Assembly: GCA_018061645.1 (NCBI GenBank)
Contig: JAGOTT010000001.1
Coordinates: 1,090-65,089 of the forward strand
Source of the DNA: Candidatus Moraniibacteriota bacterium
GTDB taxonomy: Bacteria; Patescibacteriota; Minisyncoccia; Moranbacterales; UBA1568
Direction: 5' to 3'
DNA length: 64,000 nt
Shown here in pieces: positions 4,509-63,974 of the stretch. Positions within the stretch are counted from its first letter, which is position 1, and each line of letters opens with the position of its first letter. Under the pieces are notes generated by a model. That model ran no database searches. It was given only the letters and a program-made list of their open reading frames with translations, and was not told the origin of the DNA. The position numbers and the translations under genes were made by a program.

Positions 4509-5636
4509 ATGTTCGTCAGAAGAGATATCCAAGATGAAGTGCAGAAGTCCCTTTTCAAAGGGAAAATAATCGTTTTGTACGGAGCGCGGCAGGTCGGAAA
4601 GACGACTCTGGTTCAAGAAATCTTGCGGGAATCCGGTTCTGATTCCGTGTATCTGAATTGCGATGAGCCCGACATCAGGATGGCGCTGACGGATAAGACT
4701 TCGACGGAATTGAAATCATTTATCGGCTCAAAACGTCTCGTGGTCATCGACGAGGCGCAGCGCGTGGAGAATATCGGGCTGACATTGAAATTGATCGCGG
4801 ACACTTTCCCTGAGACGCAGATCATTGCGACGGGGTCTTCGTCGTTCGAATTGTCCGGAAAAATCGCGGAGCCGTTGACCGGACGGAAACGGGAATTTTT
4901 TCTCTATCCGTTTTCTGTCGGCGAGCTTCTCCGGACAGAAACACCGATCGAGGCGGATCGTCTTTTGGAAGATCGGCTGATATTCGGTATGTACCCCGGC
5001 GTGATGATGAGTGGAACCGAACGGGGGAACAGGGTGCGCGAACTCGCGACGAGTTATTCGTACAAGGATGTGCTTGCGTATCAGAATATCCGCAACCCGG
5101 AACTTCTGGAAAAACTTCTGCAGGCATTGGCGCTTCAGATCGGAAACGAGGTTTCCTATACCGAACTCGCGCAGACCGTGGGCGCGAACAAGGTTACCGT
5201 GGAGAACTATGTCCGTATTCTGGAGCAGGCGTATATCGTGTTCCGTGTCGGACCGTTCTCGCGGAATGTGAGAAACGAGCTCAAAAAGAAACGGAAAATC
5301 TATTTTTACGACCTTGGTATGCGAAATGCGCTTATCAACAATCTCAATCCGATCGCGCTCCGGCAGGATATAGGAGCTTTGTGGGAGAATTTTCTCGTGA
5401 GCGAGCGATTGAAGCGGAATAGCAATGCCGGTATCGCAGTGAATCGATATTTTTGGCGCACGACAAGCGGGAAGGAAATAGATTATCTCGAGGATGCCGG
5501 TGGTGCGCTTCGGGGCTATGAATTCAAATGGAGGAAAGAGAGATTTTCAATCCCGAAAGAATTTCTGATCGGATATCCGGGGAGCGATGTGTCGCTGGTA
5601 AATCGTGAGAATTATCGTGAATTCCTTACGCTGTGA
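4509..5636 (+). CDS. AAA-family ATPase with DUF4143-type C-terminal domain (COG1373-like ATP-binding protein)
   Basis: 375 aa. Walker A LYGARQVGKTTL, Walker B VVIDEAQ. Architecture typical of COG1373 ATPases. Sits inside the duplicated pilD-start boundaries. Confidence 0.75.
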   Translation: MFVRRDIQDEVQKSLFKGKIIVLYGARQVGKTTLVQEILRESGSDSVYLNCDEPDIRMALTDKTSTELKSFIGSKRLVVIDEAQRVENIGLTLKLIADTFPETQIIATGSSSFELSGKIAEPLTGRKREFFLYPFSVGELLRTETPIEADRLLEDRLIFGMYPGVMMSGTERGNRVRELATSYSYKDVLAYQNIRNPELLEKLLQALALQIGNEVSYTELAQTVGANKVTVENYVRILEQAYIVFRVGPFSRNVRNELKKKRKIYFYDLGMRNALINNLNPIALRQDIGALWENFLVSERLKRNSNAGIAVNRYFWRTTSGKEIDYLEDAGGALRGYEFKWRKERFSIPKEFLIGYPGSDVSLVNRENYREFLTL

Positions 5637-5689: not shown

Positions 5690-6481
5690 ATGGTATTCAT
5701 TCTCTTCATCTTCGGGCTCGTTCTCGGGAGTTTTCTCAATGTCGTGCTGTTCCGATTCGGAACGGGAGAAACGATGGTTTCGGGGCGGTCGCGGTGCAAC
5801 GCGTGTCGGGAGCCGATTGCGTGGTATGACAATATTCCGCTTCTCTCCTTTGTTTTTCTCCGTGGGAAGTGTCGGAAGTGCGGCGCGAAGATTTCTCTTC
5901 AATATCCGGCGGTCGAGCTTTCGACCGCGCTCCTGTTCGCGTTCGCAGGGGTGAGATTTTATGTGCCGGAAAGCGTGAATGCGGCGCTCGAGACGACTCT
6001 TGCATTGGGTCTTATCGCGACGCTCGTCGTCATCTTCGTCTACGACCTCCGGCACATGGAGATTCCCGTGTCCGCGCTCGGTTTCGGGATACTCTGGACA
6101 ATGTTCTCGCTTTTTTTCCTGTGGTGGCTCGCGTTGCCGCGGGAAGCGTTTCTCGATTCCCGGTTCTTCGACGGTCTGGTCGGCGGAGCGATCGCCTTTT
6201 CGCTCTTCTATGCGATCGTCTTTTTTTCGAAAGAGACATGGATGGGGGAGGGGGATGCATGGCTCGCGCTCCTTCTCGGCCTCGCCGTCGGATGGAAACT
6301 GCTCCTGCCTGCGCTCACGCTCGCGTTCGGGTCGGGGGCGATCGTCGGTATCGCGCTCATCGCGATGAAACGGAAGGAGATGCAAAGCCGGATTCCTTTC
6401 GGACCGTTCCTCGCAGCCTCCGTGCTTTTCATGTTGTTTTTTGGTACAATGGTGAAGCGATACTTTTTCTTCGGAATGTGA
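5690..6481 (+). CDS. pilD: Prepilin peptidase PilD (A24 family)
   Basis: 263 aa. N-terminal Zn-binding CNAC...CRKC. Multiple TM helices. Confidence 0.85.
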   Translation: MVFILFIFGLVLGSFLNVVLFRFGTGETMVSGRSRCNACREPIAWYDNIPLLSFVFLRGKCRKCGAKISLQYPAVELSTALLFAFAGVRFYVPESVNAALETTLALGLIATLVVIFVYDLRHMEIPVSALGFGILWTMFSLFFLWWLALPREAFLDSRFFDGLVGGAIAFSLFYAIVFFSKETWMGEGDAWLALLLGLAVGWKLLLPALTLAFGSGAIVGIALIAMKRKEMQSRIPFGPFLAASVLFMLFFGTMVKRYFFFGM

Positions 6482-7056
6482 ACGATCGAATCAGGAATCA
6501 GGAATCAGGAATCAGGAATCATGCTCGAAGGAGTAATGGATTCACGCTTGTCGAACTCGTGGTTTCCATGGCGATCCTTTCGACTATGGCGGCGGTGACC
6601 ATCATCTCGATGGGAGGATCGAAGACGAGGCAGGAGGTCGAAGGCGCGGCGCGCCAGCTTGCCGCAGCGATCCGCGAGACTCAGAATTATGCGCTTACCG
6701 GGAAGAATATCGGTGCGGCAGGGGACGTGCCGTGCCAGTTCCGCGTGAATGTGAATATCGGTACGTCGGTCTCCGATTTCACGGTGCAACAGATCAGGTT
6801 CGTATCCGGAACATGCGATACGAATTCTGGCGCACCGATGACGTATTCTCTTCCAAGCGGAGTCCAATTTTCCGCGGATGCCCATGTCAGGTTCGATGTC
6901 CCGCGCGGCGAACCGAAAAATTCCGCCGGAACGGAAATCGGTACTTCCGGAGTGACGCATGTGGATTTCTCGTTCGCGAAGAACGGTTCGACCGCGCATG
7001 TGTGCGTGTATCCGCTCGGACGGGTGGAAGAGAAAATCGGAGTGAATTGCATTTGA
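6478..7056 (+). CDS. Minor pilin / pseudopilin (GspH-like), GTG start overlapping the pilD stop (ATGTGA)
   Basis: Frame 1 has no in-frame ATG. GTG at 6478 gives MNDRIRNQESGIRNHARRSN|GFTLVELVVSMAIL, a basic leader followed by a canonical G/FTLVE site. The alternative ATG at 6521 is in another frame. Start remains uncertain. Confidence 0.5.
   Translation: MNDRIRNQESGIRNHARRSNGFTLVELVVSMAILSTMAAVTIISMGGSKTRQEVEGAARQLAAAIRETQNYALTGKNIGAAGDVPCQFRVNVNIGTSVSDFTVQQIRFVSGTCDTNSGAPMTYSLPSGVQFSADAHVRFDVPRGEPKNSAGTEIGTSGVTHVDFSFAKNGSTAHVCVYPLGRVEEKIGVNCI
6488..6520 (+). repeat. Heptanucleotide tandem repeat (GAATCAG) x4.7
   Basis: Direct reading: gaatcag gaatcag gaatcag gaatcag gaatc. Lies inside the predicted leader-peptide coding region of the next gene. 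Confidence 0.9.
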
Positions 7057-31905: not shown

Positions 31906-32946
31906 ATGAATATGTCCATCAAGGAATTCATTCTTGATCTGAATAAGCAGCGGAGTGATGCGTTCTGCTCGCCGGAGGCGCAGGATGCGCTCCGTCTCTA
32001 CCGGAAGCAGCACCCGACGACTTTTCTTGTCTTCAAATGCATGGATGGGCGGATCAATATTCCGCTCATCGCGAATCTTCCGGAGGGAGCGCTCCAGCCA
32101 TTCCGCAATATCGGCGGGAAATTCGACCTCGGCTCACCGCTTCTCAACGACCTCGTGCTCAAGGCGAGACGGCAAGCCGGTCGCGAAGGGAACCGGATGC
32201 TGTCTTTGTGTACGTATCACTTCTCGGAAGGGGATATCCATCGCGGCTGCGCGGGTCACAATCATGACACGGACGCCGCCATCGCCGGCGCAAAGGCGCT
32301 CAAAGATCAGTTCGAGAGGATGTTCGGCCGGGAAAACCGGGTCGTTTCTGCGATCGTCGTCGGTATCGAGACGGACGAGGACGCGCTTATCTTCCATAAT
32401 GGGGGTGACGAGCGTTTGCTGATCGCGGAACACGTCGACGCGACCGACGATGAGATTGAGCGACTCCTGTCATCCTTATATGGGCAGATGCACCCGGACA
32501 TGCTTCGGGATCTCTTGCCGATCGCACTCGGGAACCGTGACCATGTACGGAACATTCGTCTCCAGAAACGGCCGGTTGCGGAACTTGTGCATGGCGAGAA
32601 TGTCATCGCGGTCGGTCGCGGGTTCGGTTGGCTCCATGTCCCGAACAAGGCGCTCATCATCGGTCCGTACGACTATGATTGGGGCGAGGCGGTGAAGGTT
32701 GCCGGAAAGATCGTTTCCGCGAACATCGCGGAAGGGCGTGTTCCGAAGGAGGATGGAGCATTGCTTCTCGTCCTTACCCCGTTCTGGGAGCTGGACGAGC
32801 GCGATGCGGTCGCGGAAAAATCCCGCTATATCGCCCGGGTGTCGAAACGAGTTCTCAACGAGTCGTTTCCGGGTCTCAAACTCGATGTGCTCGTCGGTGT
32901 GACGGACATGCGGACGAGGTTGATGCACGAGATTTCTCCGGAATAG
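31906..32946 (+). CDS. Beta-carbonic-anhydrase-like protein with about 150-aa C-terminal extension
   Basis: CxDxR (KCMDGR), FRNIGG, and HxxC (IHRGCAGH) motifs in beta-CA order and spacing. Confidence 0.4.
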   Translation: MNMSIKEFILDLNKQRSDAFCSPEAQDALRLYRKQHPTTFLVFKCMDGRINIPLIANLPEGALQPFRNIGGKFDLGSPLLNDLVLKARRQAGREGNRMLSLCTYHFSEGDIHRGCAGHNHDTDAAIAGAKALKDQFERMFGRENRVVSAIVVGIETDEDALIFHNGGDERLLIAEHVDATDDEIERLLSSLYGQMHPDMLRDLLPIALGNRDHVRNIRLQKRPVAELVHGENVIAVGRGFGWLHVPNKALIIGPYDYDWGEAVKVAGKIVSANIAEGRVPKEDGALLLVLTPFWELDERDAVAEKSRYIARVSKRVLNESFPGLKLDVLVGVTDMRTRLMHEISPE

Positions 32947-39835: not shown

Positions 39836-40660
39836 TTAAGCCTTCGCTTCCTCCTTCTTTTCTTCCTGAGCGGTTTCTTTTTCGAGCGCTTCCATGTCGC
39901 GGATCCATTCGTCGAGAACGTTTCCGGTAACTGCCGCTTCGGCATCGCTTTCGGGAAGTGCGGAATCGGCGATCGGGGACTGCTTATCCTCGGCGTTCAT
40001 CAGTTCGGTCTTCCACTGCTCCATGCGGGCCGTGTTCGCCGTGATGGCGCTTTTCGCGGCTTCGTGAGCCGCTTCGGCTACGAGCGCACCTTTTTGGAGT
40101 ACGTTCTCTATCGCTGCGAATGTCGCTTCCATGTCACGTGGGAGAAGTATGGCTACCTCGTCTCCCGGGGCGAGTTTGAAGTAGGTGACGGACGCGAGAA
40201 GGACACGATACAGCTTTCCGTCCGCGACGATCTGGTAATTCCCGCGATCATCCTGCGAGACAATCCCGATGGCATGGCGACGCTCGACCGGGCCGATCTG
40301 CTTGTAGAGGAAAGTTCCGTCCGGAGTAATGGTGAGCTTGAGCATGTCGCCTTCGACGAGTTTCGATTTCGATGCATAGTTCGCGGGAACCGGATACTGT
40401 TTTCCGTCCGCGCCCGACATGAACTGCCCGTCGAAGGTTCCCTGAACCACGGATCCGTCTCCTTGCTCCGCGTCTTTTCTGGGTCGGCCCGACTTCTTCT
40501 TTCCTTCGATCTGAAGAAGCATCGCTCGGGCGCTCTGAATCGTCCGTTCCGCGTTCATGATCATGTCGCGGAGCGCCTGTATTTTTCCGGCCTGGTCGCC
40601 GGAGGAGGCGGGTGCCTCGTCGTGTTCCCCTGATGACATACTTTTGTTTTGGTCCGCCAC
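39836..40660 (-). CDS. Hypothetical protein
   Basis: 274 aa, acidic/Lys-rich termini. No motif recognised. Confidence 0.45.
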   Translation of the reverse strand: MADQNKSMSSGEHDEAPASSGDQAGKIQALRDMIMNAERTIQSARAMLLQIEGKKKSGRPRKDAEQGDGSVVQGTFDGQFMSGADGKQYPVPANYASKSKLVEGDMLKLTITPDGTFLYKQIGPVERRHAIGIVSQDDRGNYQIVADGKLYRVLLASVTYFKLAPGDEVAILLPRDMEATFAAIENVLQKGALVAEAAHEAAKSAITANTARMEQWKTELMNAEDKQSPIADSALPESDAEAAVTGNVLDEWIRDMEALEKETAQEEKKEEAKA

Positions 40661-40768: not shown

Positions 40769-40798
40769 TTGACAAAATTTGATAATGTGCGATAGTAT
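40769..40798 (+). promoter_or_regulatory. Candidate sigma70 promoter (TTGACA-17/18-TAGTAT) in the divergent intergenic region
   Basis: Consensus -35. Would give a very short leader for the 40813 gene. Confidence 0.35.
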
Positions 40799-40812: not shown

Positions 40813-41901
40813 ATGCATACCATCATGGAACAGAATAAAGGGAAAAAGGGGCAGGAGGCCGTTTCGCGGGGAGAGGAGGTCTTTTCTTTCGCTCGGTCAC
40901 TCCGGGATTTCTCGGAGGTTCTTTTGCCGCGGACGAGGGAGATCGTCTCGTCAAGATTCGGTTTGTCAGGAGGGAAGACGAAGACTCTTGAGGAGATCGG
41001 AAAGGAGTATGGCATCACGCGGGAGCGCGTGCGGCAGATTCTCGCGAGCGCGTTCTCGCTCGTGAAACAGCGTCGGGACAATCCGTCCTATATCGGGGCC
41101 GCATCCCGCATAGAGGAATCACTCGCCGATCATAGCGGGATATTGGCGGCTGACGATCTTTTCGCCGTTCTCTCGGGCGGTGATAAGAGCGAGTATGGGG
41201 CTATCCGATTTTTTCTCGAATGTCTGAAGTCCGTGAAGGAAGAGAAGGAGACGCGGAACCGTCCGCGGACATTCGTGGTCGCCGGATTTCCGTTTTCGGA
41301 ATGGGAGAAGGTGTTTTCGACCGCGGAGTCGGTGCTTCGGGATGCCGGAACCACGCTTGATGCCGATGAATTCTACGACCAGGCGGTGAAACGCCGTCTT
41401 TCGGTCGACCGAAAGACTTTTTTCGATTATCTCATGGCATCTTCCGCTATCCGGAAGAACGCGTTCGGTCGCTTCGGCTTTTCGGATTCGAGCGAAGTCC
41501 GACCGAGGGGAACCAGGGAAAAAGCCTATCTTGTGTTGAAGATGAATTCCGCACCGCTCCATTTCAAGGACATCGCGGCTAGGATCGACGAGATCGGTCT
41601 CCAGCGAAAAGGGCGGAAGACGCATCCGCAGACGGTGCATAACGAGCTCATAAAGGACAAGAAATTCGTACTGGTCGGACGGGGTCTGTACGCGCTTTCC
41701 GAATGGGGGTACAGACGGGGAACGGTCCGTGAAGTGCTTGACGGGATCCTGTCCACATCCGGTGCGCCGATGAAGCGCGATCGGATTCTCGAGGAAGTCC
41801 TCCGTGTCCGGCAAGTCAAACGATCGACCATTATCATCAATCTGAACGCATTTTTTGAAAAAGTCGGCAAAGAAGAGTATACTGTGAAAACGAGGCGGTA
41901 A
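40813..41901 (+). CDS. Sigma-70 region-4-like HTH protein with large C-terminal domain
   Basis: SRFGLSGGKTKTLEEIGKEYGITRERVRQILASAF is a region-4-type HTH near the N-terminus. No region 2 recognised. Confidence 0.45.
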   Translation: MHTIMEQNKGKKGQEAVSRGEEVFSFARSLRDFSEVLLPRTREIVSSRFGLSGGKTKTLEEIGKEYGITRERVRQILASAFSLVKQRRDNPSYIGAASRIEESLADHSGILAADDLFAVLSGGDKSEYGAIRFFLECLKSVKEEKETRNRPRTFVVAGFPFSEWEKVFSTAESVLRDAGTTLDADEFYDQAVKRRLSVDRKTFFDYLMASSAIRKNAFGRFGFSDSSEVRPRGTREKAYLVLKMNSAPLHFKDIAARIDEIGLQRKGRKTHPQTVHNELIKDKKFVLVGRGLYALSEWGYRRGTVREVLDGILSTSGAPMKRDRILEEVLRVRQVKRSTIIINLNAFFEKVGKEEYTVKTRR

Positions 41902-41989
41902 AAGGTTTCGTGGTGTTTCCCTCTATACGAAGCAAGAAAGGTCGGGCGGTTTATGGCGCAACGACGCATCCGTTCCCTCCGTACATCAC

Positions 41990-43288
41990 ATGGACATCAT
42001 TCTTCTTTCTCTCGGAGATTTTTTCCGCGAAATAAACCGGGCGTTCTCGCTTCTCGGCGACGTCTGGTATTTCCTGTTTCCGCCCATCCTCTATCCGCTC
42101 TTCAAGATATTCTGGATGGATCATATCCAGAACCGGTACGTCGGTACCCTCTCCTACGTGCTGCTTGAGATCATCCCGCCGAAGGAGATGGAAAAGAGCC
42201 CGAAGCCCATGGAATCGGTTTTTTCGGGTCTTGTCGGTGTCGCAAAAGGCTACAGCGTCGTCGAACAATTCGTCCAGGGGCAGTTTCCGGCATCGTTCTC
42301 GCTCGAAATCGCGAGCGAGGGCGGGGAGGTGCACTTCTATGTCAGGACCCAGAAAGGATTCCGCAACCTTGTGGAAGCCCATTTTTATGCCCAGTATCCG
42401 GATATGGAAATCATGGAGGTTCCGGATTATATCGGCAATGTCCCGGTGACGGTTCCGAACAACGAATGGGATCTGTGGGGAACCGACTTCAAGTTGACGA
42501 AACCGGATCTGTATCCGATCCGGACATATCCGTCATTCGAGGAGGATGTGACGGGAAAGATGATCGACCCTTTGGCGGGTCTCATCGAATCAATGGGGCG
42601 GCTTTCGCCCGGTCAGAACATCTGGTTCCAGATGATCATCTCTCCGGAGGAGGATTCATGGTACAAGAAAGGCCAGGCGACCGTGGACGAATTCATCGGA
42701 AAACCGAAAAAGGAATCGACGAGCATGTTCGGGATGATATGGCACGATCTTCTTGATGTCCTTTCGAACATCATTCCCGGACTGATTTCCGGAACGGCGT
42801 TCTCGACGCTCGAGAAAAAGGCGGATGCCAAACAGGATCAGCCGCTCGAGTTCCGGCTTTCGCCGGGACAAAAGGATGTGCTGAAAGCGCTCGAACGCAA
42901 TCTCGGGAAACAGATGTACAGGACGAAGATGCGCATGCTCTATGTCGGGAAGCGGGACGGGTTCGATAAGTCGTTCGTCTCCATGTTCATGGGATCGCTC
43001 AAGCAGTTCAACGACATGAGTCTGAACGGATTCGCTCCGGAAGCCGACTCGAAGACCTATGCGCAGTATCTGTTCGTGAACGAGCGGCTGCGGTACCGCC
43101 AGAGGCGGATCTTCCGGCGGTACATATCACGCGATCCCGATCCGACAGGGAAGATGTTCGAGCTTTCCATCGAGGAGCTCGCGACACTGTTCCATATGCC
43201 GGACTTCTCCGTGATGGCGCCGGCTCTGGTCCGTGTCGCGGCGAAGCGGTCGAGTGCGCCTGCCAATCTTCCTATTCTTGAGGATTAA
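41990..43288 (+). CDS. Membrane-anchored partner protein of the downstream ATPase (hypothetical)
   Basis: 432 aa with an N-terminal TM hairpin. The downstream gene starts 10 nt after its stop. Confidence 0.5.
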   Translation: MDIILLSLGDFFREINRAFSLLGDVWYFLFPPILYPLFKIFWMDHIQNRYVGTLSYVLLEIIPPKEMEKSPKPMESVFSGLVGVAKGYSVVEQFVQGQFPASFSLEIASEGGEVHFYVRTQKGFRNLVEAHFYAQYPDMEIMEVPDYIGNVPVTVPNNEWDLWGTDFKLTKPDLYPIRTYPSFEEDVTGKMIDPLAGLIESMGRLSPGQNIWFQMIISPEEDSWYKKGQATVDEFIGKPKKESTSMFGMIWHDLLDVLSNIIPGLISGTAFSTLEKKADAKQDQPLEFRLSPGQKDVLKALERNLGKQMYRTKMRMLYVGKRDGFDKSFVSMFMGSLKQFNDMSLNGFAPEADSKTYAQYLFVNERLRYRQRRIFRRYISRDPDPTGKMFELSIEELATLFHMPDFSVMAPALVRVAAKRSSAPANLPILED

Positions 43289-43297
43289 CGAACGTTT

Positions 43298-45382
43298 ATG
43301 TCCGATCAGAACGATATCAGTTTCTTCGCACGAACGAACTTCCGGAACCAGGAACGGATTTTCGGCATCAAGGAGGACGATCGGCGCCGACACATGTACG
43401 TGATCGGAAAGACCGGCATGGGGAAGACGAACCTGCTCGAGAACCTCGCCATCCAGGACATCAAGCATGGCAAGGGGATCGCGTTCATCGATCCTCACGG
43501 AGATACCGCCGAGAAGCTCATCCGGGCGATTCCTTCGGACCGGATCAACGACGTCATCTATTTCAATCCGGCTGACCAGGATTTCCCGATCGCGTTCAAC
43601 GTCATGGAGAACGTGAACTCGGAGTACAAGCATCTCATCGCGTCCGGTCTCGTCGGCGTGTTCAAGAAACTCTGGGCGGATTCGTGGGGACCTCGGCTCG
43701 AATACATCCTCCGGAACGCGATCCTCGCGCTCCTCGAGTATCCGGGATCGACCCTGCTCGGAGTCACGCGCATCCTCGTCGACAAGGATTATCGCGAGAA
43801 GGTCGTCGCGAAAATCACGGATCCGGTCGTGCGTGCGTTCTGGGTGGACGAGTTCTCGAAGTGGAACGACCGCGTGCTTCAGGAAGTCATCTCTCCGATC
43901 CAGAACAAGGTCGGACAGTTCCTCTCGACTTCGCTTATCCGAAACATCGTCGGTCAGACGACGTCGTCGTTCGATGTGCGCGAAGCCATGGACAGCGGCA
44001 AGATCCTTATCATGAACCTGTCCAAGGGTCGCGTCGGCGAGGATGCGAGCGCGCTCATCGGAGCGATGATGATTACCAAGATCCAGCTTGCCGCCATGGA
44101 ACGCGTCGACATGCCGGAGGAGGAGCGGAAGGATTTTTATCTCTATGTCGACGAGTTTCAGAACTTCGCGACGGAGTCGTTCGCGAACATCCTCTCCGAG
44201 GCGCGGAAATACCGGCTCAGCCTCATCCTCGCGAACCAGTACATCACCCAGCTCGACGAGAAAGTGGCGGATGCGGTCTTCGGTAACGCGGGAACGATCA
44301 TTGCCTTCCGTGTCGGCGCGGCAGACGCGGAGATCCTCGAGAAGGAATTCGATCCGGTCTTTCTCATGAACGACATCGTCAACCTGCCGAAATACAACAT
44401 CTACCTCAAGCTCATGATAGACGGCATCGCCGGTGACGCGTTCTCCGCGACCGTGCTTCCCCCGATTTCCCTTCAGGAGACGGCTGAGAATGAGGAGAAG
44501 GTGATCCGCATCTCGCGGGAGCGGTATGCGTCTTCGAAAAAGGAAGTCGAAGACAAGATAAGGCGGTGGAGCGGTATGCTTACCGAAGACGAGCGTGCGG
44601 AACTTCTCCGAAAGAAGGCATTGCCGATATCACATCCCATCGTGTCGCAGAGGAGTCCGACAGTTGTGCCGAAGCAGCCGGTATCCTTGTCTGCGAAACC
44701 GATAGTCGCATCATCAAAACCGAAAAGTGCGTTCGCCATAAGATATCCCCGTGAGACGGAGGAGGAGCCGAAGTCGGCTGTCGCGGAGGATCCTGCGGAT
44801 GTTCCGGAACCGATCGTTGCGGCTCCGGTTCCGGCCGAAGTGACAGTTTCCGTTCCGGAATCCGTACCTATGGAAACACCGGAACCTCTTCGGGACGAAT
44901 CCGCACTCCAGACGGAATTCGAGCGGGCACTTTCCGTCGCGGAGCAGGTCGGGGACGAGGTATCCGAAAAAACGATGTCCCTACCGGAAGTGGAGCCGGA
45001 AGAACGTCCGACATACCCGTCGCTCTGTGATACCTGCGGCATGGAGATCCGCGTTCCGTTCCAACCGGACGGATCCCGTCCGACCTTCTGCAAGGAGTGT
45101 TTCAAGAGCCATCAACGGACGATGGCTCGCGCGCGTGAGGACCGTTCGAAACCGAAGACGGTTGCTTCCGGCGTTCAGAGGAAGTCGGGTTTCGAGCGGA
45201 AGCAGGATGTCCCGTATTCGCGCACGACTGAGGCACGTGTCTACGCTTCGGCCGACGAGCCGATCTCGCTTTCGCGGGCATCGCTCGTCGCTCCGAAAAA
45301 ATTCAAACCGCTGCATAAGCGTCCGGATCCGGACCTCGGTGCGGTCCGGGACATACTGAAAAACAGGAAACCGAAAAAATGA
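43298..45382 (+). CDS. FtsK/HerA-superfamily P-loop ATPase resembling type IV coupling proteins (TraD/VirD4-like), with disordered linker and C-terminal Zn-ribbon
   Basis: Walker A VIGKTGMGKTNLL closely followed by a DPHGD motif (compare DPKGE in VirD4/TrwB). Walker B LYVDEFQNF. No N-terminal TM helix. C-terminal CDTCG...(17)...CKEC. Confidence 0.5.
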   Translation: MSDQNDISFFARTNFRNQERIFGIKEDDRRRHMYVIGKTGMGKTNLLENLAIQDIKHGKGIAFIDPHGDTAEKLIRAIPSDRINDVIYFNPADQDFPIAFNVMENVNSEYKHLIASGLVGVFKKLWADSWGPRLEYILRNAILALLEYPGSTLLGVTRILVDKDYREKVVAKITDPVVRAFWVDEFSKWNDRVLQEVISPIQNKVGQFLSTSLIRNIVGQTTSSFDVREAMDSGKILIMNLSKGRVGEDASALIGAMMITKIQLAAMERVDMPEEERKDFYLYVDEFQNFATESFANILSEARKYRLSLILANQYITQLDEKVADAVFGNAGTIIAFRVGAADAEILEKEFDPVFLMNDIVNLPKYNIYLKLMIDGIAGDAFSATVLPPISLQETAENEEKVIRISRERYASSKKEVEDKIRRWSGMLTEDERAELLRKKALPISHPIVSQRSPTVVPKQPVSLSAKPIVASSKPKSAFAIRYPRETEEEPKSAVAEDPADVPEPIVAAPVPAEVTVSVPESVPMETPEPLRDESALQTEFERALSVAEQVGDEVSEKTMSLPEVEPEERPTYPSLCDTCGMEIRVPFQPDGSRPTFCKECFKSHQRTMARAREDRSKPKTVASGVQRKSGFERKQDVPYSRTTEARVYASADEPISLSRASLVAPKKFKPLHKRPDPDLGAVRDILKNRKPKK

Positions 45383-45388
45383 CAGACT

Positions 45389-46234
45389 ATGAACCGACGA
45401 TGGGGAGTATTTTTGTTCGTGATCCTGTTTTCAGGTGCCCTATTTTCATATCGCGATGCGCTGTCCGTCATGGCGGACGATTTTTCATTGTACGTGAAAT
45501 ACCGTGCGGGTGCGGATTTTTATCGTGATCATTCGGGAAACGACTTCAGAACGGACGAACGATGGCTTTCCGCGCTCCTTTTCGAATATCGTCGGACGAT
45601 TCTCTCGGGGGAGGTCGAACGCGTTTCGCATGACCCCTTCCTTCGCGTTCTCGGGGAGCGGAAACGCTCCTTCTCCGTGTTCGACTCCATGGATCCGGTA
45701 CGATCGGAATCCGGGTACGGGTATCGCGTTAGTTCGGAGTATCGCCGTTTCCTTGTCGATCCGTGGGATGAAATCCTGCTCAAGCCGCTGTATTGCGATG
45801 TGTACGGATATTCCGATCGCGATTTTTCCGCGCTTGCCTCGATCCCGCTTGATGGCGGGTATGCCGACACCCACAAACTCCTCGGTCTGCTGTTTCTCCG
45901 CGAGCAGGGATGCTACGATCGGGCGATGCTCGATCGGATGATCCGTCAGGGATCGGAACGTATCGCCGGTTCCGCCGAATCGGATGCCGGATGGAGCGAT
46001 CTTTCCTCGGAAAGGATCGTGTTTCTTTACTGGGCCGGTGAAGGATCTCTCGTGAAGCGCGAGTGGGTGGAGCGGATAGCCGATGCGCAGGGAAGCGACG
46101 GAGGATGGTCGGATCCGGACTTCGGCTCCGGGTCGAACGCTCATTCCACGGGGCTTTCCCTTCTCGCTATCCGGTATTTTCTTGAAGGGAAGACCCCCGT
46201 GTCATTCTTTGCCCCGCTTGATAGGGTGGAATGA
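45389..46234 (+). CDS. Secreted protein with prenyltransferase/squalene-oxidase-like repeat
   Basis: Signal/anchor WGVFLFVILFSGALF. SDGGWSDPDFGSGSNAHSTGLSLLAI matches the DGGW...T..ALLAL repeat signature. Confidence 0.35.
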   Translation: MNRRWGVFLFVILFSGALFSYRDALSVMADDFSLYVKYRAGADFYRDHSGNDFRTDERWLSALLFEYRRTILSGEVERVSHDPFLRVLGERKRSFSVFDSMDPVRSESGYGYRVSSEYRRFLVDPWDEILLKPLYCDVYGYSDRDFSALASIPLDGGYADTHKLLGLLFLREQGCYDRAMLDRMIRQGSERIAGSAESDAGWSDLSSERIVFLYWAGEGSLVKREWVERIADAQGSDGGWSDPDFGSGSNAHSTGLSLLAIRYFLEGKTPVSFFAPLDRVE

Positions 46235-46425
46235 CGATTGTTCGGAAGAGGATTTTCTGATATCATGGACGCGTACTATGGAATTCCGAAAGCGCCACAA
46301 AAAACTGTATCTGTTCTGGGTGATATCTTCGTTCCTGGTCGTTTTTTCCATGGTCGCGTTCCTGTTCGCGCCGCTCTTCTATTAGTGAGGATATCGAGTG
46401 TGTCATCCGATATTTCCGAGAGGGT

Positions 46426-49427: not shown

Positions 49428-52400
49428 ATGGGAACTGGGAGATTGTTCGGTATAGCATCGTTATCTGCGGGAATCATTTTCGCGGTGTTTTTTCTTGTGC
49501 GGGATATCGTTCATGACGAAACCTTTTCGCCTGGGTCGGTGAATATCTCGGCGGCTCCGAGGACGAATGAAGCATCCGCCGGATCCGTGCTTTCGGAGAC
49601 GGATTCGCAGGAAGGTCGATCGGAGACTGCCGGTGATGAGGACTTCCTGCGCCGGTTACTGGGTGTGAGCGGGAACGGTATCGATATCCATATTGACGAG
49701 TTTCCCCGTCACGGCATCGAGGCCGAACACATTGATTCGAACTCCGTCACGAGCCGGACGATTCGCGACCGTACTATCGAGGGTATCGATATCGACAAGG
49801 GAGCTGATCTTGATATCGGTTCTTTGAATGTCTCCGGCGATGTGGATATCGCTGGTATCCTCGAGTCAGGCGGGCTTATCGTGTCCGGCGACGTGGATAT
49901 CCTCGGCGATCTCTCTGCGGTGGGACTCGATATCTCCGGCGATACGACTCTCCAAGGCGATCTCACGGTCGCGGGTTCCATTTCCGGTTCTTTCTCCGGT
50001 TCTTTCGCGCCGACCGGGGATGTGGATATGCTCGGGAATATCATGACGAATATCGGCGATAGCGGAACGGACTTCACTTCGTCCGGAGGTCTCACGCTTG
50101 CCGGTGCTCTCACGCTCACCCCGCTTACTCCGGGGTCGATTCCGTTTATCGGTATCGCAGGCGTCATGAGCCAGGACAACGCGAATCTTTTTTGGGACGA
50201 CACGAGCAATCGGCTGGGTATCGGCACGACAAGCCCCGAGGCAACCCTTGATGTCCGTGGTCCTCTAGGTGTTTTCAGGGATATAACTGGCACAGGCATA
50301 GTCTCTGATTATTATTACGGAGTTGATTATCTAACATCTGTTTTTCAAATAGATGCGAACATTCAATATGGGATAGCCTATGTCGGAGCAGGTAATAATC
50401 ATTATTCAGTATGGCAAGAATATATAAAAACTCGGTCAACTGATGGAACCACCTATGCCATCGTTCACGATGGCGACGAACTCGGAAGATTCAATTTTCA
50501 TGGTGACGACGGGAGTAATTTAGCACAGGGTGCCATGATACAGGTTAGTGTAGATGGAACGCCTGGGGAAGATGATATGCCAGGGAGGATAAAATTTTGG
50601 ACAACACCAGCCGGAGCAAACTTTCCCTTAGAAAGGATGACCATTAAAAGCACTGGCAACGTCGGCATCGGGACAGCGAGTCCGACGACAAAACTTGATG
50701 TTGTAGGAAACATAAGGACAAATGGATATTTCAACGCAGGGGATGTGACAATGTTAAATGGAACTGCGCTCTACAGTGCAAATGCACCAAGTTTTGATAT
50801 TTACGAAAGTAATGCCAGTAGCAAACTATATATATCAGCAAGTGGTGGACTAATCTTGGGGCTAAAAAGTGATGGGACGAATACCGGCAACGTCGGCATC
50901 GGGACGGCGAGCCCATCTACGAAACTTGAAATATCGGGGGATGTTATTGGTAGCGGTGTCGCTTTGACAGTAAAAAATCTGGCAACCAGCGCATCATATG
51001 CACGACTTAATCTGGTTGCAAATGGCAAAACATCAGACATATTCTTTGATGGTTCTGGAGGTTTTATTTCCGGAGGAGGTTTGATTTTCCGCTCGAATGG
51101 AGATCCGCTACATTTTTTCACGGGTTCAAATAATCGAGTTACCATCAACAGTCATGGCAAAGTCGGTATCGGTGACACCACTCCCGACGGACTGCTCGAC
51201 ATCGAACCGACCGGAGCGGCGACTGCCTCCTCCTATGGGATCAATCTCTCGAATCTTACCACTAACGCGACGACCGACGGTGTCAACAAATATGGTGCCT
51301 ACCTCACCTCGACTGGTGCCTGGACCGGAGGTGGCGGTACCGCGACCAACAACTACGGACTCTATGTCGATACTGTTTCCGGCGCAGACAACAACTACGG
51401 AGCCTATATAGCCGGCAACGTCGGTATCGGGACGACAAGTCCGGGGGCGAAGCTGGACGTCAGTGGAAATTTTCAACTTAGTGGAGACCTAGTTATGACC
51501 GGTGTCGCCTCAAAGATCTGGGGGGATACGGATTTCAGTTATTTGCAGTTATATAATGCTTTTGGACAAGGCGAGACACAAATTGGCAATGGACATACGA
51601 ATGGTGGAATAAGATTCTTCACAGCTCCGACAATTGCCAAAACTTATGTTGAAGCAATGAGAATAACGCCAACCGGCAACGTTGGTATCGGAACGACAAA
51701 TCCGGGGACTGCTTTAGATGTTGGTTCGGGTAATATACAAACTACAGGAACAATTAAAGGCGTATCGTTAATCGCTAACGGGACAAGCAATTTCAAACTT
51801 GTTACTGCAAACGCCCCTGCTTCTTGGAGTGGAAATGGTCCAGCCGGAGTGCTACAGCTTCAAGATATTAACGGAAATTACAGCACTACGATCAATTCCA
51901 ACTCAAGAGGATTGCAAACACTCGGATTGTATGTGGATGGCCTTGGCGTTAATAATTATATTGCAGGCAACGTCGGTATCGGCACGACGAGCCCAGGTTC
52001 AAAACTTTCGTTTGTGGCGGATACGATCGCGGCTGGCGGAATAACTTTTGGAAGTGATACCAATCTGTACCGCTCCTCCGCTGATATCCTTAAGACGGAT
52101 GACACTCTTTCGGTCGGAACGCAGTTGCTTACGAATGTGGTGAAGAAACTCGACAGCTCAAAATTCATGCTTGTCGGGAGCGGGAGTGATTTGTATGTAG
52201 GCGGAAGCAGCGGCGTGGGTCAATATGCGAACGCTATTTTTGATATATCCGGCAATGTTGGTATCGGCACGACAAGTCCATCGTATAAGCTTGATGTTGC
52301 AGGGTCGATTCGCACCGCATCGGGACAAGGAATATTTACCGGACTGTCAGCGTTAGCTCAAAATGCCAATGGTCTTATTGTGTTTGGTGGTGATAATGGT

Positions 52401-54035
52401 GGCACCGTGTACGCGAGGGGCGATGTCGCTGGCGCAGACAATAACTTAAATTTGCAAGCCTTTGATGATATTAATTTTGATACGTTTCCGAGCGGTTCTC
52501 CTGTGACTGGTATGGTCATAAAAAAGACCGGCAACGTCGGTATCGGGACGACGAGTCCGACGGCGTTATTGGATTTAAACTCAACAAATGGCGGTGATAC
52601 TGATATATTAAGAATTTCAAATCCTTCGGCAAGCGCCGGATCTATTTATGGATTAGCTTGGCGAGATACCGCAAATAACAAGACGTATGCTCGTATCGCC
52701 TCATCATACGGTGCTTCATATGTCAATTCCTATTTGTCCTTAAGCGTGGCGGATAGTACGGAGACGCTACAGGAAAGAATGAGAATTGATAAATCTGGCA
52801 ATGTCGGTATCGGCACGACAAGTCCGAGTGAAAAACTGGATGTAAATGGTCACATTAAGGTTAATAACTATATCAAGCTGGGTAATAATACGGGTGGTTT
52901 CGTTGATCCAAACGGAAATCCTTTCTTATATACGACTTCAAGCGGTCTCGAAACACGAGTAAATGCCTATTATACAGGCGGGTTTGTTTCACTTTATTCC
53001 GGTTCCCCGAATGCGGAAAGGATGAGAGTGACAAGCGCAGGCAACGTCGGTATCGGCACGACGAATCAATTCGGCTCCGGTTCCGGCGTGCTCGCGCTCG
53101 GCAATGCCACGACCAACCCGACCACGACCCTTACGAACGCCGCGCTCCTCTATGCTACCGGAGGGGAGATGTATGTCTACGACGCGGCGGGAAACGCGAC
53201 GCAGATCTCCCCGCATGATGATATGGGGTTGTGGCACTACAACTCCACGAACACGAGAATGGGGAAGACGCTCGAGGTGAGCATGGAGCTCCTTACTAAG
53301 GATCTCGATCGGATTCTCGGCGGCGGATACGTGTACGAGAACGGTGATCGTCTGTTCTCCGGAGAGAACCGGATCGATTCGCTCTCGCTTCGGACCGACG
53401 AATATGCGACGACCCTTGGTGCGTTCCGGGCATCCGTCGATGAGAATCTCCTTTCCGTGAGTGCGAGTCTGTCGGACTCCGGAAAGGATATTGACGAGCT
53501 TACCGAAAAGATCGAAGGCCTCGACGCAAAGATGGCGAGCACAGAGGAAAGCCTCGAAGATCGGATCGTCGTACTCGAGAACGGCGTGACGTCCCGAGAC
53601 ACGCAAATTTCCGCACTCATGGATTTCTATTCCGCACTCGACCTGGGGAACGTGCTTTTGCTTGATATCGACGGGAACCTCACGATTCCGTCAGGAGACC
53701 TCCTGATCCGGAATATCGAAGCACAGGGGACGATCCGTGCCGAGGACGTGGAGGCGGAAGACGGTATCACTGCCGGAGGCATCGTCGCGGGCGCCGCTAT
53801 CGCCGCGGGGGAGGAATCTTCCGGATCCGGGACGCTCAAGGCGGGGGACGACAGGACCGTCATCGATACGGAGTATGCCAACGAAGACGCCAAGATATTC
53901 ATCACGATCAAGGGTTCCCCACACGGGAAATCCCTTTATGTCGATGATATCGAGGAGGGCGAGAGCTTCACGGTGAAAGTGGACGGAGATGTCTCCGACA
54001 AGGATATCGATTTCTTCTGGTTCGTGCTTCGGTAG
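49428..54035 (+). CDS. Giant cell-surface protein with about 10 tail-fibre-like GNVGIGTTSP(S/G)xKLDV repeats and C-terminal coiled-coil/beta domain
   Basis: 1535 aa. N-terminal anchor FGIASLSAGIIFAVFFLV. The repeat motif is characteristic of phage tail-fibre and bacterial fibrous adhesin repeats. Confidence 0.8.
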   Translation: MGTGRLFGIASLSAGIIFAVFFLVRDIVHDETFSPGSVNISAAPRTNEASAGSVLSETDSQEGRSETAGDEDFLRRLLGVSGNGIDIHIDEFPRHGIEAEHIDSNSVTSRTIRDRTIEGIDIDKGADLDIGSLNVSGDVDIAGILESGGLIVSGDVDILGDLSAVGLDISGDTTLQGDLTVAGSISGSFSGSFAPTGDVDMLGNIMTNIGDSGTDFTSSGGLTLAGALTLTPLTPGSIPFIGIAGVMSQDNANLFWDDTSNRLGIGTTSPEATLDVRGPLGVFRDITGTGIVSDYYYGVDYLTSVFQIDANIQYGIAYVGAGNNHYSVWQEYIKTRSTDGTTYAIVHDGDELGRFNFHGDDGSNLAQGAMIQVSVDGTPGEDDMPGRIKFWTTPAGANFPLERMTIKSTGNVGIGTASPTTKLDVVGNIRTNGYFNAGDVTMLNGTALYSANAPSFDIYESNASSKLYISASGGLILGLKSDGTNTGNVGIGTASPSTKLEISGDVIGSGVALTVKNLATSASYARLNLVANGKTSDIFFDGSGGFISGGGLIFRSNGDPLHFFTGSNNRVTINSHGKVGIGDTTPDGLLDIEPTGAATASSYGINLSNLTTNATTDGVNKYGAYLTSTGAWTGGGGTATNNYGLYVDTVSGADNNYGAYIAGNVGIGTTSPGAKLDVSGNFQLSGDLVMTGVASKIWGDTDFSYLQLYNAFGQGETQIGNGHTNGGIRFFTAPTIAKTYVEAMRITPTGNVGIGTTNPGTALDVGSGNIQTTGTIKGVSLIANGTSNFKLVTANAPASWSGNGPAGVLQLQDINGNYSTTINSNSRGLQTLGLYVDGLGVNNYIAGNVGIGTTSPGSKLSFVADTIAAGGITFGSDTNLYRSSADILKTDDTLSVGTQLLTNVVKKLDSSKFMLVGSGSDLYVGGSSGVGQYANAIFDISGNVGIGTTSPSYKLDVAGSIRTASGQGIFTGLSALAQNANGLIVFGGDNGGTVYARGDVAGADNNLNLQAFDDINFDTFPSGSPVTGMVIKKTGNVGIGTTSPTALLDLNSTNGGDTDILRISNPSASAGSIYGLAWRDTANNKTYARIASSYGASYVNSYLSLSVADSTETLQERMRIDKSGNVGIGTTSPSEKLDVNGHIKVNNYIKLGNNTGGFVDPNGNPFLYTTSSGLETRVNAYYTGGFVSLYSGSPNAERMRVTSAGNVGIGTTNQFGSGSGVLALGNATTNPTTTLTNAALLYATGGEMYVYDAAGNATQISPHDDMGLWHYNSTNTRMGKTLEVSMELLTKDLDRILGGGYVYENGDRLFSGENRIDSLSLRTDEYATTLGAFRASVDENLLSVSASLSDSGKDIDELTEKIEGLDAKMASTEESLEDRIVVLENGVTSRDTQISALMDFYSALDLGNVLLLDIDGNLTIPSGDLLIRNIEAQGTIRAEDVEAEDGITAGGIVAGAAIAAGEESSGSGTLKAGDDRTVIDTEYANEDAKIFITIKGSPHGKSLYVDDIEEGESFTVKVDGDVSDKDIDFFWFVLR

Positions 54036-62267: not shown

Positions 62268-63974
62268 TCACCACGTCACCCGGAACACCTCGTCGATGTT
62301 CGTCGTGCCGAGGATCGCTTTCGCGAGGCCGTCGATGCCGAGCGTCTTGAACCCGTCGTCTTCGAGGATTTTCTTGAAAGCGGCGTCATCTTTCCCGGTC
62401 GTGGTCGCCTGGCGGACCCGGTCGTTCATTTCGAGCACTTCGAAGATGCCGACCCGACCGGAGTATCCCGTGAAATCGCAACGCGAACAGCCCTTCTCTT
62501 TGAAGAGCGGTATCTCGCCGAACGATGAGATCTGCTCCGGGATGATGCCGTAGTCTTTGAGAACGCGGATGGCGTAGGTCTCGTCGGTGAAACTCCGCAT
62601 GTTCTCGAGAGCCTTCCCTTCCGGATAATACTGTTCCCGACAGTGCGGGCAGAGCTTCCGGACGAGGCGTTGTGCGATGACGAGTCGGAGGGTGGATGCG
62701 ACGAGATACGGTTCGACACCCATGTCGAGAAGCCGCGGTATGGTTCCGATGGCGTTGTTCGTGTGGAGCGAGGAAAAGAGCGGCCGTCCAGTGAGGGATG
62801 CACGTACGGCGGTCGATGCGGTTTCCCCGTCGCGGATCTCGCCGACCATGACGATATCCGGATCCTGGCGAAGGATGGCGCGGAGTCCCGCGGGGAAGGT
62901 GAATTCGACTCCGGGGTTGATCTGCATCTGGGTGATGCGGGGCATGGTGTATTCGATCGGGTCCTCGATAGTGCTGATGTTGAGGACGCTCGCGCTCTTC
63001 GAGCCGATTTCCTGGAGGAACGTGTAGAGGGTCGTGGTCTTTCCTGAACCGGTCGGCCCCGTGATGAGGATCATCCCGAACGGTTTCGCGATATATTCCT
63101 GGATGAGGGCGTAGTCCTGTTCGAGCAGTCCGATATGTGCGAGATTGAGGATGACATTATCCTTGAGGAGCACGCGCAAGACGGCTTTTTCTCCCCACAT
63201 GGTCGGAGCGAGCGAGATACGGAGGTCAATCGGCTGCTCGTCCTTCTTGATGCGGATGCGGCCTTCCTGCGGTGTCCGGCGTTCGTCGAGTTCGAGCGAA
63301 GCCAGTACCTTGAGATAGGATATGAAGCGTTGATAGACGGAAATCGGAAGCACCGCGATTTCCCGGAGGAATCCGTCGATGCGGAACCGGACGACGAAGT
63401 CGGTCTCATACGGTTCGAGGTGGATGTCCGAGACCTCGAACGTCTGCGCGAGATCGAGGAGCGATTCGAAAAGACCGACCCCGGACTGTTCGTTGTATTT
63501 GAGATCCGCCTCGCTGTCATCGGTGTAGATCTGGAAGTTCGAGAGGGCGCGTCCGACGATGTCCTGCGTCGTTCCCTGATACAGGATGAGCCCCCGTCGG
63601 ATGGCGTTCTCGAGCGCGACGAACGATTTTACGGGCATGTTCGTCATCCGTTCTATCTCGGTCACCGTTCCGGCGTTTCTCGGATCGGCGAATCCGACGC
63701 AGAGCTGCCCCTCCTCGATCGCGAAGGGGAGCGAGAGGTGTTCAGCGACGAATTTCTCCGGGAGAAGCGCGAGGGTCGATTTGTCGATCGCGCTCATCTT
63801 GAGGTCGATCGCGGGAATCCCGAAATGCTCCGAGAGGAGATCGAGAAAGTATTGCCGTGAAACGAGATGTTCTTCAGCGATGACCTTTTCCAGCGGAACG
63901 CCGGCATCTGCGGCTTTTTTCTCGGCTGCGGCGAATTCTTCCGCCGTCATGATTCTTCCTTGTCCGGCGAACAT
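62268..63974 (-). CDS. pilB: Type IV pilus assembly ATPase PilB (GspE family)
   Basis: 568 aa. N-terminal GspII_E domain. Walker A ILITGPTGSGKTTTLY. Tetracysteine CPHC...CSRC. Confidence 0.9.
   Translation of the reverse strand: MFAGQGRIMTAEEFAAAEKKAADAGVPLEKVIAEEHLVSRQYFLDLLSEHFGIPAIDLKMSAIDKSTLALLPEKFVAEHLSLPFAIEEGQLCVGFADPRNAGTVTEIERMTNMPVKSFVALENAIRRGLILYQGTTQDIVGRALSNFQIYTDDSEADLKYNEQSGVGLFESLLDLAQTFEVSDIHLEPYETDFVVRFRIDGFLREIAVLPISVYQRFISYLKVLASLELDERRTPQEGRIRIKKDEQPIDLRISLAPTMWGEKAVLRVLLKDNVILNLAHIGLLEQDYALIQEYIAKPFGMILITGPTGSGKTTTLYTFLQEIGSKSASVLNISTIEDPIEYTMPRITQMQINPGVEFTFPAGLRAILRQDPDIVMVGEIRDGETASTAVRASLTGRPLFSSLHTNNAIGTIPRLLDMGVEPYLVASTLRLVIAQRLVRKLCPHCREQYYPEGKALENMRSFTDETYAIRVLKDYGIIPEQISSFGEIPLFKEKGCSRCDFTGYSGRVGIFEVLEMNDRVRQATTTGKDDAAFKKILEDDGFKTLGIDGLAKAILGTTNIDEVFRVTW

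Follow-up and report, generated by a model that had tools for sequence, protein, structure and literature searches.

We analysed a 64,000-nucleotide stretch of DNA from a Candidatus Moraniibacteriota bacterium (NCBI GenBank assembly GCA_018061645.1, contig JAGOTT010000001.1, positions 1,090 to 65,089 of the forward strand), hereafter the window, whose own numbering is used throughout. The analysis concerns a group of co-directional genes that encode a helix-turn-helix (HTH) protein, here called SigHARE, a membrane-anchored protein of the DUF8128 family, and a soluble ATPase resembling type IV coupling proteins (T4CPs). These genes form a conserved module of the Patescibacteria that is best interpreted as a two-polypeptide translocase with a dedicated HTH protein. 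The original prediction for this locus had described a tight operon of a different trio, namely the membrane protein, the ATPase and a secreted protein, p281, encoded downstream. The features of the locus are as follows.

40769..40798 (+), sigma-70-like promoter, TTGACA, spacing of 16/18 nt, GATAGT/TAGTAT; consensus match, 10 of 12 positions
40813..41901 (+), SigHARE, HTH gene, 362 aa; conserved first gene of the module, same direction as the operon
41855..41883 (+), second promoter-like site, TTGAAA-17-TATACT, within the 3' end of the HTH gene and 5' of the DUF8128 gene
41990..43288 (+), DUF8128 protein, 432 aa; N-terminal half of the putative translocase
43298-45382 (+), T4CP-like ATPase, 694 aa
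43298..44587 (+), ATPase motor domain, aa 1-430; Pfam TrwB_AAD_bind, TraG-D_C, DUF87
43406-43429, 43490-43504 and 44138-44167 (+), motor motifs Walker A, DPHGD and Walker B, respectively
44588..45004 (+), low-complexity linker rich in E/P/V/A/S, aa 431-569; by composition
45005..45115 (+), CxxC-x17-CxxC treble-clef zinc ribbon, aa 570-606; PF23477, TIGR04272
45116..45382 (+), basic C-terminal tail, aa 607-694, plus the stop codon; conserved end motif PKKFK...RP..DL..VR
45389..46234 (+), p281, 281 aa; adjacent to the conserved module but outside it

The open reading frames (ORFs) of the DUF8128 protein, the ATPase and p281 lie exactly where the original prediction had placed them, and are separated by gaps of 9 nt (DUF8128 to ATPase) and 6 nt (ATPase to p281). 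The HTH gene, said earlier to be transcribed divergently, is in fact on the + strand, directly upstream of and co-directional with the operon, and ends 88 nt before the start of the DUF8128 gene. No terminator-like site separates the genes, including the interval from 41901 to 41990, and p281 is probably co-transcribed with the ATPase. The near-consensus promoter reported beside the HTH gene was recovered as TTGACA-N16/18-TAGTAT, a consensus match only, about 15 nt 5' of that gene. The G+C content of the module (0.55-0.57) equals that of its surroundings.

The motor domain of the ATPase harbors the Walker A motif GKTGMGKT (aa 37-44), a DPHGD motif (aa 65-69) whose counterpart in the alignment with TrwB is DPNGD, and the Walker B motif YLYVDEFQNF (aa 281-290). 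DPHGD follows Walker A by about 21 aa, rather than within 15 aa as first stated. We performed Pfam profile searches with the ATPase, which passed the gathering scores of TrwB_AAD_bind (44 bits versus a cut-off of 20.5, aa 26-340), TraG-D_C (30.3 versus 22) and DUF87 (28 bits). T4SS-DNA_transf was marginally below its cut-off (20.0 versus 20.1 bits), no match to FtsK_SpoIIIE or Ftsk_gamma was found at E<=0.1, and AAA_10 and CagE_TrbE_VirB did not match. Among PDB sequences, the ATPase is closest to the coupling proteins TrwB (1.3e-7) and DotL (8e-5). It is 100% identical to a Candidatus Moranbacteria protein encoded in an NCBI metagenome-assembled genome. These comparisons support the assignment, already made in the original prediction, of the ATPase to the T4CP (TrwB/TraD/VirD4) branch of the FtsK-HerA superfamily. 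Within this superfamily it is a distinct family, as every curated model scores far below its cut-off. This holds for the T4CP models (TIGR03743, 53 versus 366 bits; NF045973, 38 versus 250; TIGR03754, 36.5 versus 648; TIGR02759, 18.7 versus 521), for the VirB4 model TIGR00929 (25 versus 643), for the NCBIfam Ced models (CedD, 27.8 versus 600, 9.6e-7; CedB, 21.8 versus 700, 6e-5) and likewise for the HerA family models.

No hydrophobic segment was found in the 694 residues (maximum Kyte-Doolittle score, KD, 1.26), in agreement with the proposed lack of a transmembrane (TM) domain. Downstream of the motor, the low-complexity linker spans about 140 aa, shorter than the 200 aa first estimated; its length differs among orthologues, and its identity to the orthologue in L082, one of the two closest relatives (L081 and L082), is 42%. 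The zinc ribbon that follows, with cysteines C577, C580, C598 and C601 spaced 2-17-2, matches two profiles above their cut-offs, PF23477 (zf_Tbcl_2; 44.9 bits versus 27, 9e-12) and TIGR04272 (45.3 bits versus 36, 5e-12). It is conserved in 59 of the 77 orthologues, two of which (L029 and L032) carry it as a tandem duplicate. Zinc binding by this type of domain has been demonstrated for small proteins of M. mazei (PMC12704099); the literature found on CxxC-x17-CxxC reports zinc binding only, and no function. The ribbon is real but does not end the protein, as had been thought: a basic tail of about 90 aa extends beyond it, with invariant columns, the conserved end motif and, among orthologues, a median net charge of +6. 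The motor retains 64-70% identity even across Patescibacteria classes, whereas its two partner proteins go down to 30-37%.

The DUF8128 protein owes its name to its homologues: PF26449 (DUF8128) is precomputed on all 120 homologues listed, 93%-identical ones included, and on the 97%-identical orthologue in L081, while a direct local Pfam scan of the window protein gave no match, presumably because that copy lacks the model. No paper mentioning DUF8128 was found in the literature. A single N-terminal hydrophobic segment lies at about aa 25-45. In the window protein it is rich in aromatic residues and proline and reaches a KD of only 1.40, whereas 47 of 56 orthologues reach at least 1.6; no other hydrophobic stretch is present, and this holds across the orthologues. 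A separate membrane protein is thus encoded upstream of the ATPase, as proposed, but the TM hairpin attributed to it was rejected, the sole hydrophobic segment being N-terminal. The AlphaFold2 (AF2) model (pLDDT 75, pTM 0.71) comprises a long N-terminal helix followed by an α/β domain of about 380 aa. We compared this model with the PDB using Foldseek, and the top 13 matches were all chains of TrwK, the VirB4 of R388 (E 8e-5 to 4e-4, probability 1.0). In BFVD, the model matched two neighboring proteins of Bacillus phage G, gp156 (1e-18) and gp155 (1.6e-8), the latter being VirB4/TraG-P-loop-like by Pfam. The match is taken to concern the N-terminal domain of VirB4 because the DUF8128 domain sits in front of a motor. 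We infer from the model that the DUF8128 protein combines a single anchor with a domain resembling the VirB4 N-terminal domain.

The relation of the two proteins becomes apparent from homologues in which they form a single chain. An exhaustive HMMER search with the motor gave 24,194 cluster representatives, of which 6,979 reached E<=1e-30. Among the best 149 representatives of 50%-identity clusters, the motor begins after residue 250 in 62, and 57 of these 62 single-chain forms have a full-length match to the DUF8128 hidden Markov model (HMM) immediately N-terminal to it. The same organization is found in the phage family phrog_5156 (824 positions), with DUF8128 on 77-358 (1.8e-10) and the ATPase on 407-816 (3e-65). 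Its member gp156 (825 aa) shares 29.6% identity with the motor (8e-45) and matches DUF8128 with a profile-profile probability of 95% (hhalign). Once concatenated, the window proteins are collinear with the single chains P0272, P0293, P0286 and P0297 (43-49% identity over about 800-840 aa), with an indel of at most 4 aa at the junction. There, the window proteins read APANLPILED and then, across the junction, MSDQNDISFFARTNFRN, where a single chain reads APTNLPI-EGSEEDLTLFAKTNFRE. The median gap between the DUF8128 and ATPase genes of the orthologous loci is about 10 nt. The sequences strongly support the view that DUF8128 and the ATPase are two halves of one protein machine: since single-chain fusions are widespread and the alignment is collinear over the junction, the upstream gene is the missing N-terminal half of the ATPase. 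The earlier idea of a split coupling protein thereby stands in part. The N-terminal half is encoded upstream, but consists of a single anchor and a VirB4-N-terminal-like domain in place of the two-helix membrane domain of T4CPs.

Fused homologues also occur in an integrative element and in phages. A distant one (L086:6290-11444; 1,227 aa, 39% identity) is located in an integrative element of a diderm bacterium, between a 234-aa gene without assignment and a downstream Replic_Relax gene (PF13814), and genes for an integrase and an HTH_17 protein are close by. Mobile-element proteins of the coupling type therefore belong to the wider family, and this form may represent its mobile-element ancestor type. 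In phage G (L083:2220-6362), the gene for the VirB4-like ATPase gp155 is directly 5' of fused gp156, which is annotated 'MsbA-like', and SPO1-like and other Bacillus phages carry similar fused genes annotated as hypothetical or 'lipid A export permease'. These labels look like mis-annotations.

To define the conserved gene set, one genome per species was scanned. This yielded 80 loci, every one of them patescibacterial (among them Moran-, Falkow-, Buchanan-, Kerfeld-, Uhr- and Doudnabacteria and unclassified Parcubacteria), which were checked by tblastn and HMM. In 59-60 of the 80 loci the ATPase gene is immediately preceded by the DUF8128 gene, and in 55 the latter is in turn immediately preceded by the HTH gene, with constant order and strand. 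HTH gene, DUF8128 and ATPase are thus established as a conserved three-gene module. The module is vertically inherited, strongly constrained and part of the core chromosome, and the tree follows the lineages. Ratios of non-synonymous to synonymous substitution (dN/dS), from comparison with two close relatives, are:

motor, aa 1-430: 0.02-0.03
DUF8128: 0.05-0.06
HTH gene: 0.10
p281: 0.09
linker: 0.31-0.39
DivIC and peptidyl-prolyl isomerase (PPIase): 0.07-0.12

The motor, under very strong purifying selection, is hence more constrained than the neighboring housekeeping genes. In other Moranbacteria, DivIC, PPIase and HtrA come right after the ATPase. DivIC lies downstream on the same strand in 28 of the 80 loci, in three different arrangements, and FtsZ (9 loci), Dac (16) and family 2 glycosyltransferase (GT2; 26) genes also occur nearby; FtsQ/POTRA, Ddl, MurB and MurC are found near fused genes.

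The third member, SigHARE, was originally presented as a sigma-70 region-4-like HTH protein adjacent to the operon. Region 4 was confirmed by Pfam (Sigma70_r4, aa 36-82, 2.3e-12), together with a HARE-HTH domain (aa 236-298, 1.6e-9), but the gene proved to belong to the module itself, and it is also found 5' of fused forms: a Sigma70_r4 gene is directly upstream of the fused gene in the three loci inspected (L084, L087 and L088), two of which include HARE-HTH. Both domains are strongly conserved across the phylum. In the PDB, only region 4 of SigA/RpoD was matched, the best match being B. subtilis SigA (1.2e-11). No other sigma region was detected in the protein, the remainder of which is HARE-HTH and unassigned sequence, and all sigma equivalog models were far below cut-off. 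As judged from these profiles SigHARE is not a sigma factor; DNA, RNA polymerase or both may be its binding partners. Divergent from the HTH gene lies a gene for a 274-aa protein (39836-40660, -) with no Pfam match, conserved only within Moranbacteria (8 of the 80 loci) together with GtrA and DnaX.

The gene for p281 was absent from all 80 loci. Homologues form 18 clusters among 5.8 billion, and the gene itself was found only in the closest relatives, L081 and L082. p281 is a real gene and a recent addition to this lineage, a passenger: it is regarded as a lineage-specific insert because of its absence from the 80 loci and its few homologues, and was rejected as a member of the module on the same grounds. 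The trio of genes proposed at the outset is therefore not co-conserved, which refutes it by the criterion that the original prediction itself had set. The protein comprises an N-terminal signal anchor (KD 1.66) and an all-α domain (AF2 pLDDT 86), so that the product predicted to be secreted is adjacent to the ATPase gene, as described, but membrane-anchored. It contains one QxxDGGW motif and not a prenyltransferase-type repeat, and has no Pfam or NCBIfam match at E<=0.1. The best folds matching its model are (α/α)6 barrels of GH105/GH88 (E 0.02, TMq 0.45), followed by the toroids of terpene synthases and complement TED (E about 0.5), at best a resemblance of fold class. Between p281 and DivIC there is an ORF for a 35-aa hydrophobic peptide, MEFRKRHKKLYLFWVISSFLVVFSMVAFLFAPLFY (46278-46385, +); L081 and L082 each have a called gene of 35 aa in this place.

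The window represents core chromosome and carries genes for LigA, GatA/B, DnaE, RNase HII, RNase III, an SMC-like protein, two HtrA proteins, ClpB and aminoacyl-tRNA synthetases, and the module is flanked by DnaX, DivIC, PPIase and HtrA genes. As originally noted, the main ORFs of the window include no VirB4, VirB6, VirB8, relaxase or other type IV secretion system (T4SS) gene; an integrase, a repeat boundary and an adjacent CedA-like channel gene are likewise absent. In 79 of the 80 loci, the motor is the only ATPase of the superfamily within +/-8 kb. Other features of the window include type IV pilus genes at both ends (60-2373, +; 5869-7056, +; 62268-63974, -), encoding a PilT-like T2SSE protein, PilC (T2SSF), a pilin-like protein with an N-terminal methylation motif, and PilB with MshEN; a DUF4143/AAA_14 ATPase gene (4509-5636) is inserted among them in a stretch of low G+C content (0.48). 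A 1,535-aa protein (49428-54035, +) with an N-terminal anchor and no Pfam match contains ten repeats of about 80-100 aa, each starting GNVGIGTTSPxxKLDVxG, and is probably a large surface or fibre protein. A 346-aa protein (31906-32946, +) matches CsoSCA_cat at 6e-8, weakly but above threshold, which is unexpected in a Patescibacterium.

Orphan T4CP-like genes in Patescibacteria are already known. According to the T4CP passages of Quinonero-Coronel et al. 2025 (PMC12102498), VirD4-like T4CP homologues occur in 2,918 of 3,035 genomes (about 96%), amounting to 5,713 genes of which only 148 are near virB4, while VirB4 occurs in 2,417 of the 3,035 genomes (80%) and relaxases are almost absent; the authors leave exaptation of the T4CP homologues possible. 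The present ATPase family almost certainly corresponds to these orphan homologues. The T4CP passages of that paper contain no DUF8128 partner, split or fused architecture, VirB4-like fold, HTH partner, zinc ribbon or synteny with division and envelope genes. What is new are the partner proteins, the architecture and the synteny, and no other paper describing them was found; a Cell 2023 Tn-seq paper gave no text match for VirD4, T4CP or FtsK.

We compared the module with known systems. With the T4CPs (TrwB of R388, TraD, VirD4 and DotL) the ATPase shares a P-loop motor with Walker A, DPxGD and Walker B, the two Pfam profiles above threshold, the best PDB sequence matches and a variable C-terminal extension. 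T4CPs, however, carry two TM helices on the same chain, whereas the present motor chain has none and the anchor is on a separate protein together with a domain of about 380 aa. They are also linked to relaxase or mating-pair-formation genes, whereas the present ATPase is an unlinked gene of the core chromosome, ends in a zinc ribbon tail and reaches only 53 of the 366 bits required by the best curated T4CP model. With VirB4 (TrwK of R388) and VirB3-VirB4 fusions it shares the order of anchor, N-terminal domain and ATPase; the likeness of the DUF8128 model to TrwK/VirB4 and to VirB4-like gp155 is structural only, and the present motor differs in being T4CP-like in sequence and located outside a T4SS cluster. 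A similar layout is found in archaeal CedB/CedD, in which a TM segment and a VirB4-like N-terminal domain precede the ATPase and which import chromosomal DNA (PMC11868833). These proteins have a HerA/VirB4-type ATPase and are likewise chromosomal and non-conjugative, but only the architecture is alike: the present proteins are bacterial, score far below the Ced cut-offs, have a motor closer to T4CPs and lack an adjacent CedA-like gene. Finally, phrog_5156 and phage G gp156 have the same two domains in one chain. By KD analysis, the strong hydrophobic segment of gp156 is internal (aa 181-207) and takes the place of an N-terminal anchor; gp156 and its Bacillus phage relatives are fused, devoid of the zinc ribbon and found in a phage context beside a VirB4-like gene.

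The architecture is thus that of an N-terminal anchor, a VirB4-N-terminal-like domain and a T4CP-like motor, here also with a disordered linker, a zinc ribbon and a basic tail. The reading with the best support is that of a membrane-anchored translocase made of two polypeptides. It would belong to the VirB4/VirD4 branch, have been domesticated for a core function of the Patescibacteria and have an HTH protein dedicated to it. Analogy with TrwB, VirB4, FtsK and CedB/CedD suggests that the motor forms a ring on the cytoplasmic face of the membrane, tethered there by the DUF8128 anchor. The ring would spend ATP on moving nucleic acid, most likely DNA, which the zinc ribbon and basic tail could hold, and SigHARE might serve as a DNA-recognition adaptor, as a regulator of the operon, or as both. 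We favor, at about even odds, a housekeeping nucleic-acid pump that does not strictly depend on a T4SS and acts either in nucleic-acid import or in DNA handling tied to envelope growth and division. This role is favored because the family is commoner than VirB4 and because its recurrent neighbors are DivIC, FtsZ, FtsQ and cell-wall genes, not those of a T4SS.

Several points weigh against this interpretation. Beyond the architecture, its support is inferential. To our knowledge, all characterised motors of the T4CP family act with a T4SS channel, and most Patescibacteria encode such a system elsewhere in the genome. The VirB4-like N-terminal domain could equally be a docking device for such a channel, and the fused homologue beside Replic_Relax fits classical coupling. 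The TM-scores of the DUF8128 model against TrwK are low (0.31-0.38), and the part of VirB4 that is aligned was not reported. The DUF8128 profile retrieved nothing among PDB sequences even at E<=10, which makes the likeness one of fold level only, and hhalign found no match between DUF8128 and VirB4-like gp155. The synteny with division genes is possibly an inherited gene order without functional meaning. According to the T4CP passages of PMC12102498, a t4cp homologue of S. epibionticum, only putatively of the present family, is non-essential for epibiotic growth. Lastly, in a monophyletic subclade of 17 loci, here called type-B and nested within the tree, the ATPase gene has neither DUF8128 nor the HTH gene as a neighbor; an iterated DUF8128 HMM revealed no hidden copy in these 17 loci.

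The type-B loci include L026, L028, L030-L032, L040-L042, L051, L057, L058, L062, L064, L069 and L075 (e.g. L030:2619-14654). The genes upstream are, in order, FtsZ, NrdR, NrdD, NrdG and a 90-115-aa protein with a coiled coil and one TM segment, followed by the ATPase. On the downstream side come genes for a DnaQ/RNase T-like exonuclease, a membrane glycosyltransferase of the GT2 family, DivIC and a D-Ala-D-Ala carboxypeptidase. In these loci the small TM protein might take over the tethering.

The main rival, which we consider possible rather than probable, is that the ATPase is the coupling ATPase or a second motor of a chromosomal T4SS of the MPF-FATA type (MPF, mating-pair formation) encoded elsewhere in the genome. 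DUF8128 would then dock the motor on the VirB3/VirB6/VirB8 inner-membrane complex, and DNA, RNA or protein would pass through the channel during epibiotic host contact. The motor is T4CP-like by every profile, and the modelled fold of DUF8128 would be that of the VirB4 domain that contacts the inner-membrane complex. Both the distant fused homologue beside Replic_Relax, an arrangement expected of a coupling protein, and the phage G form adjoining a VirB4-like gene point in the same direction, and T4CP genes often lie away from virB4, itself present in 80% of genomes (PMC12102498, T4CP passages). These same figures nevertheless set 96% of genomes with the family against 80% with VirB4, and only 148 of the 5,713 genes near virB4. 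There is no T4SS gene in the window nor, as far as tested, within +/-8 kb of the 80 loci. The conserved partner is an HTH protein and not a relaxase, an enzyme almost absent from the phylum, and the T4SS genes of S. epibionticum are essential whereas its putatively related t4cp homologue is not (same passages of PMC12102498).

A pump of the FtsK/SpoIIIE kind that clears chromosomes from the septum, replacing or supplementing FtsK in these small cells, seems improbable. It would account for the repeated synteny with DivIC, FtsZ, FtsQ, Mur and Dac in independent arrangements, for the very strong purifying selection, and for a membrane-tethered FtsK-HerA motor with a long flexible linker and a terminal module of DNA-binding type, a layout that recalls FtsK with the order reversed. 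Yet the Pfam FtsK_SpoIIIE signal is absent, ftsK is annotated in at least one Patescibacterium, TM7x (PMC10768705), and the synteny is possibly historical.

A horizontally gained mobile-element remnant or anti-phage ATPase (MADS mad8-like or HerA-like) without core function is very improbable: the PADLOC mad8 match (1e-16), the weak HerA/DndH matches, the MzaA-type region-4 match of the HTH protein and the relatives in Bacillus phages and one integrative element are outweighed by the same gene order and orientation across Moran-, Falkow-, Kerfeld-, Buchanan-, Uhr- and Doudnabacteria, by a tree that follows the lineages, by a motor more constrained than its housekeeping neighbors, by normal G+C content without integrase or repeat boundary, and by near-universal presence in the phylum (PMC12102498, T4CP passages). 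We thus rejected the defence-system reading of the mad8, HerA and MzaA matches on account of vertical inheritance and strong constraint, and a mobile-element remnant because the G+C content is normal, the flanking genes are core genes and the synteny is conserved; the remnant of conjugation or competence envisaged in the original prediction falls with them.

Patescibacteria represent a large share of bacterial diversity, lack nucleotide synthesis and depend on material from host cells, and how macromolecules pass their envelope is a standing question. The translocase reading defines a unit composed of an anchor, a VirB4-like domain, a T4CP-like motor, a zinc ribbon and a dedicated HTH partner, and ties a Pfam domain of unknown function to the neighboring motor as its N-terminal half. 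It also adds a data point on the kinship of the VirB4 and VirD4 ATPases and provides concrete constructs and predictions for the few cultivable strains. In its boldest and rather doubtful form, DUF8128, motor and HTH protein would be a self-sufficient, phylum-wide and T4SS-free pump that imports host DNA or RNA or clears DNA at division. If this were true, the combination of a VirB4-type N-terminal domain with a VirD4-type motor would be a surviving intermediate between two families of conjugation ATPases. A motor present in about 96% of genomes (T4CP passages of PMC12102498), located away from the secretion system and more conserved than its housekeeping neighbors, is an obvious candidate for part of the traffic across the envelope of these bacteria.

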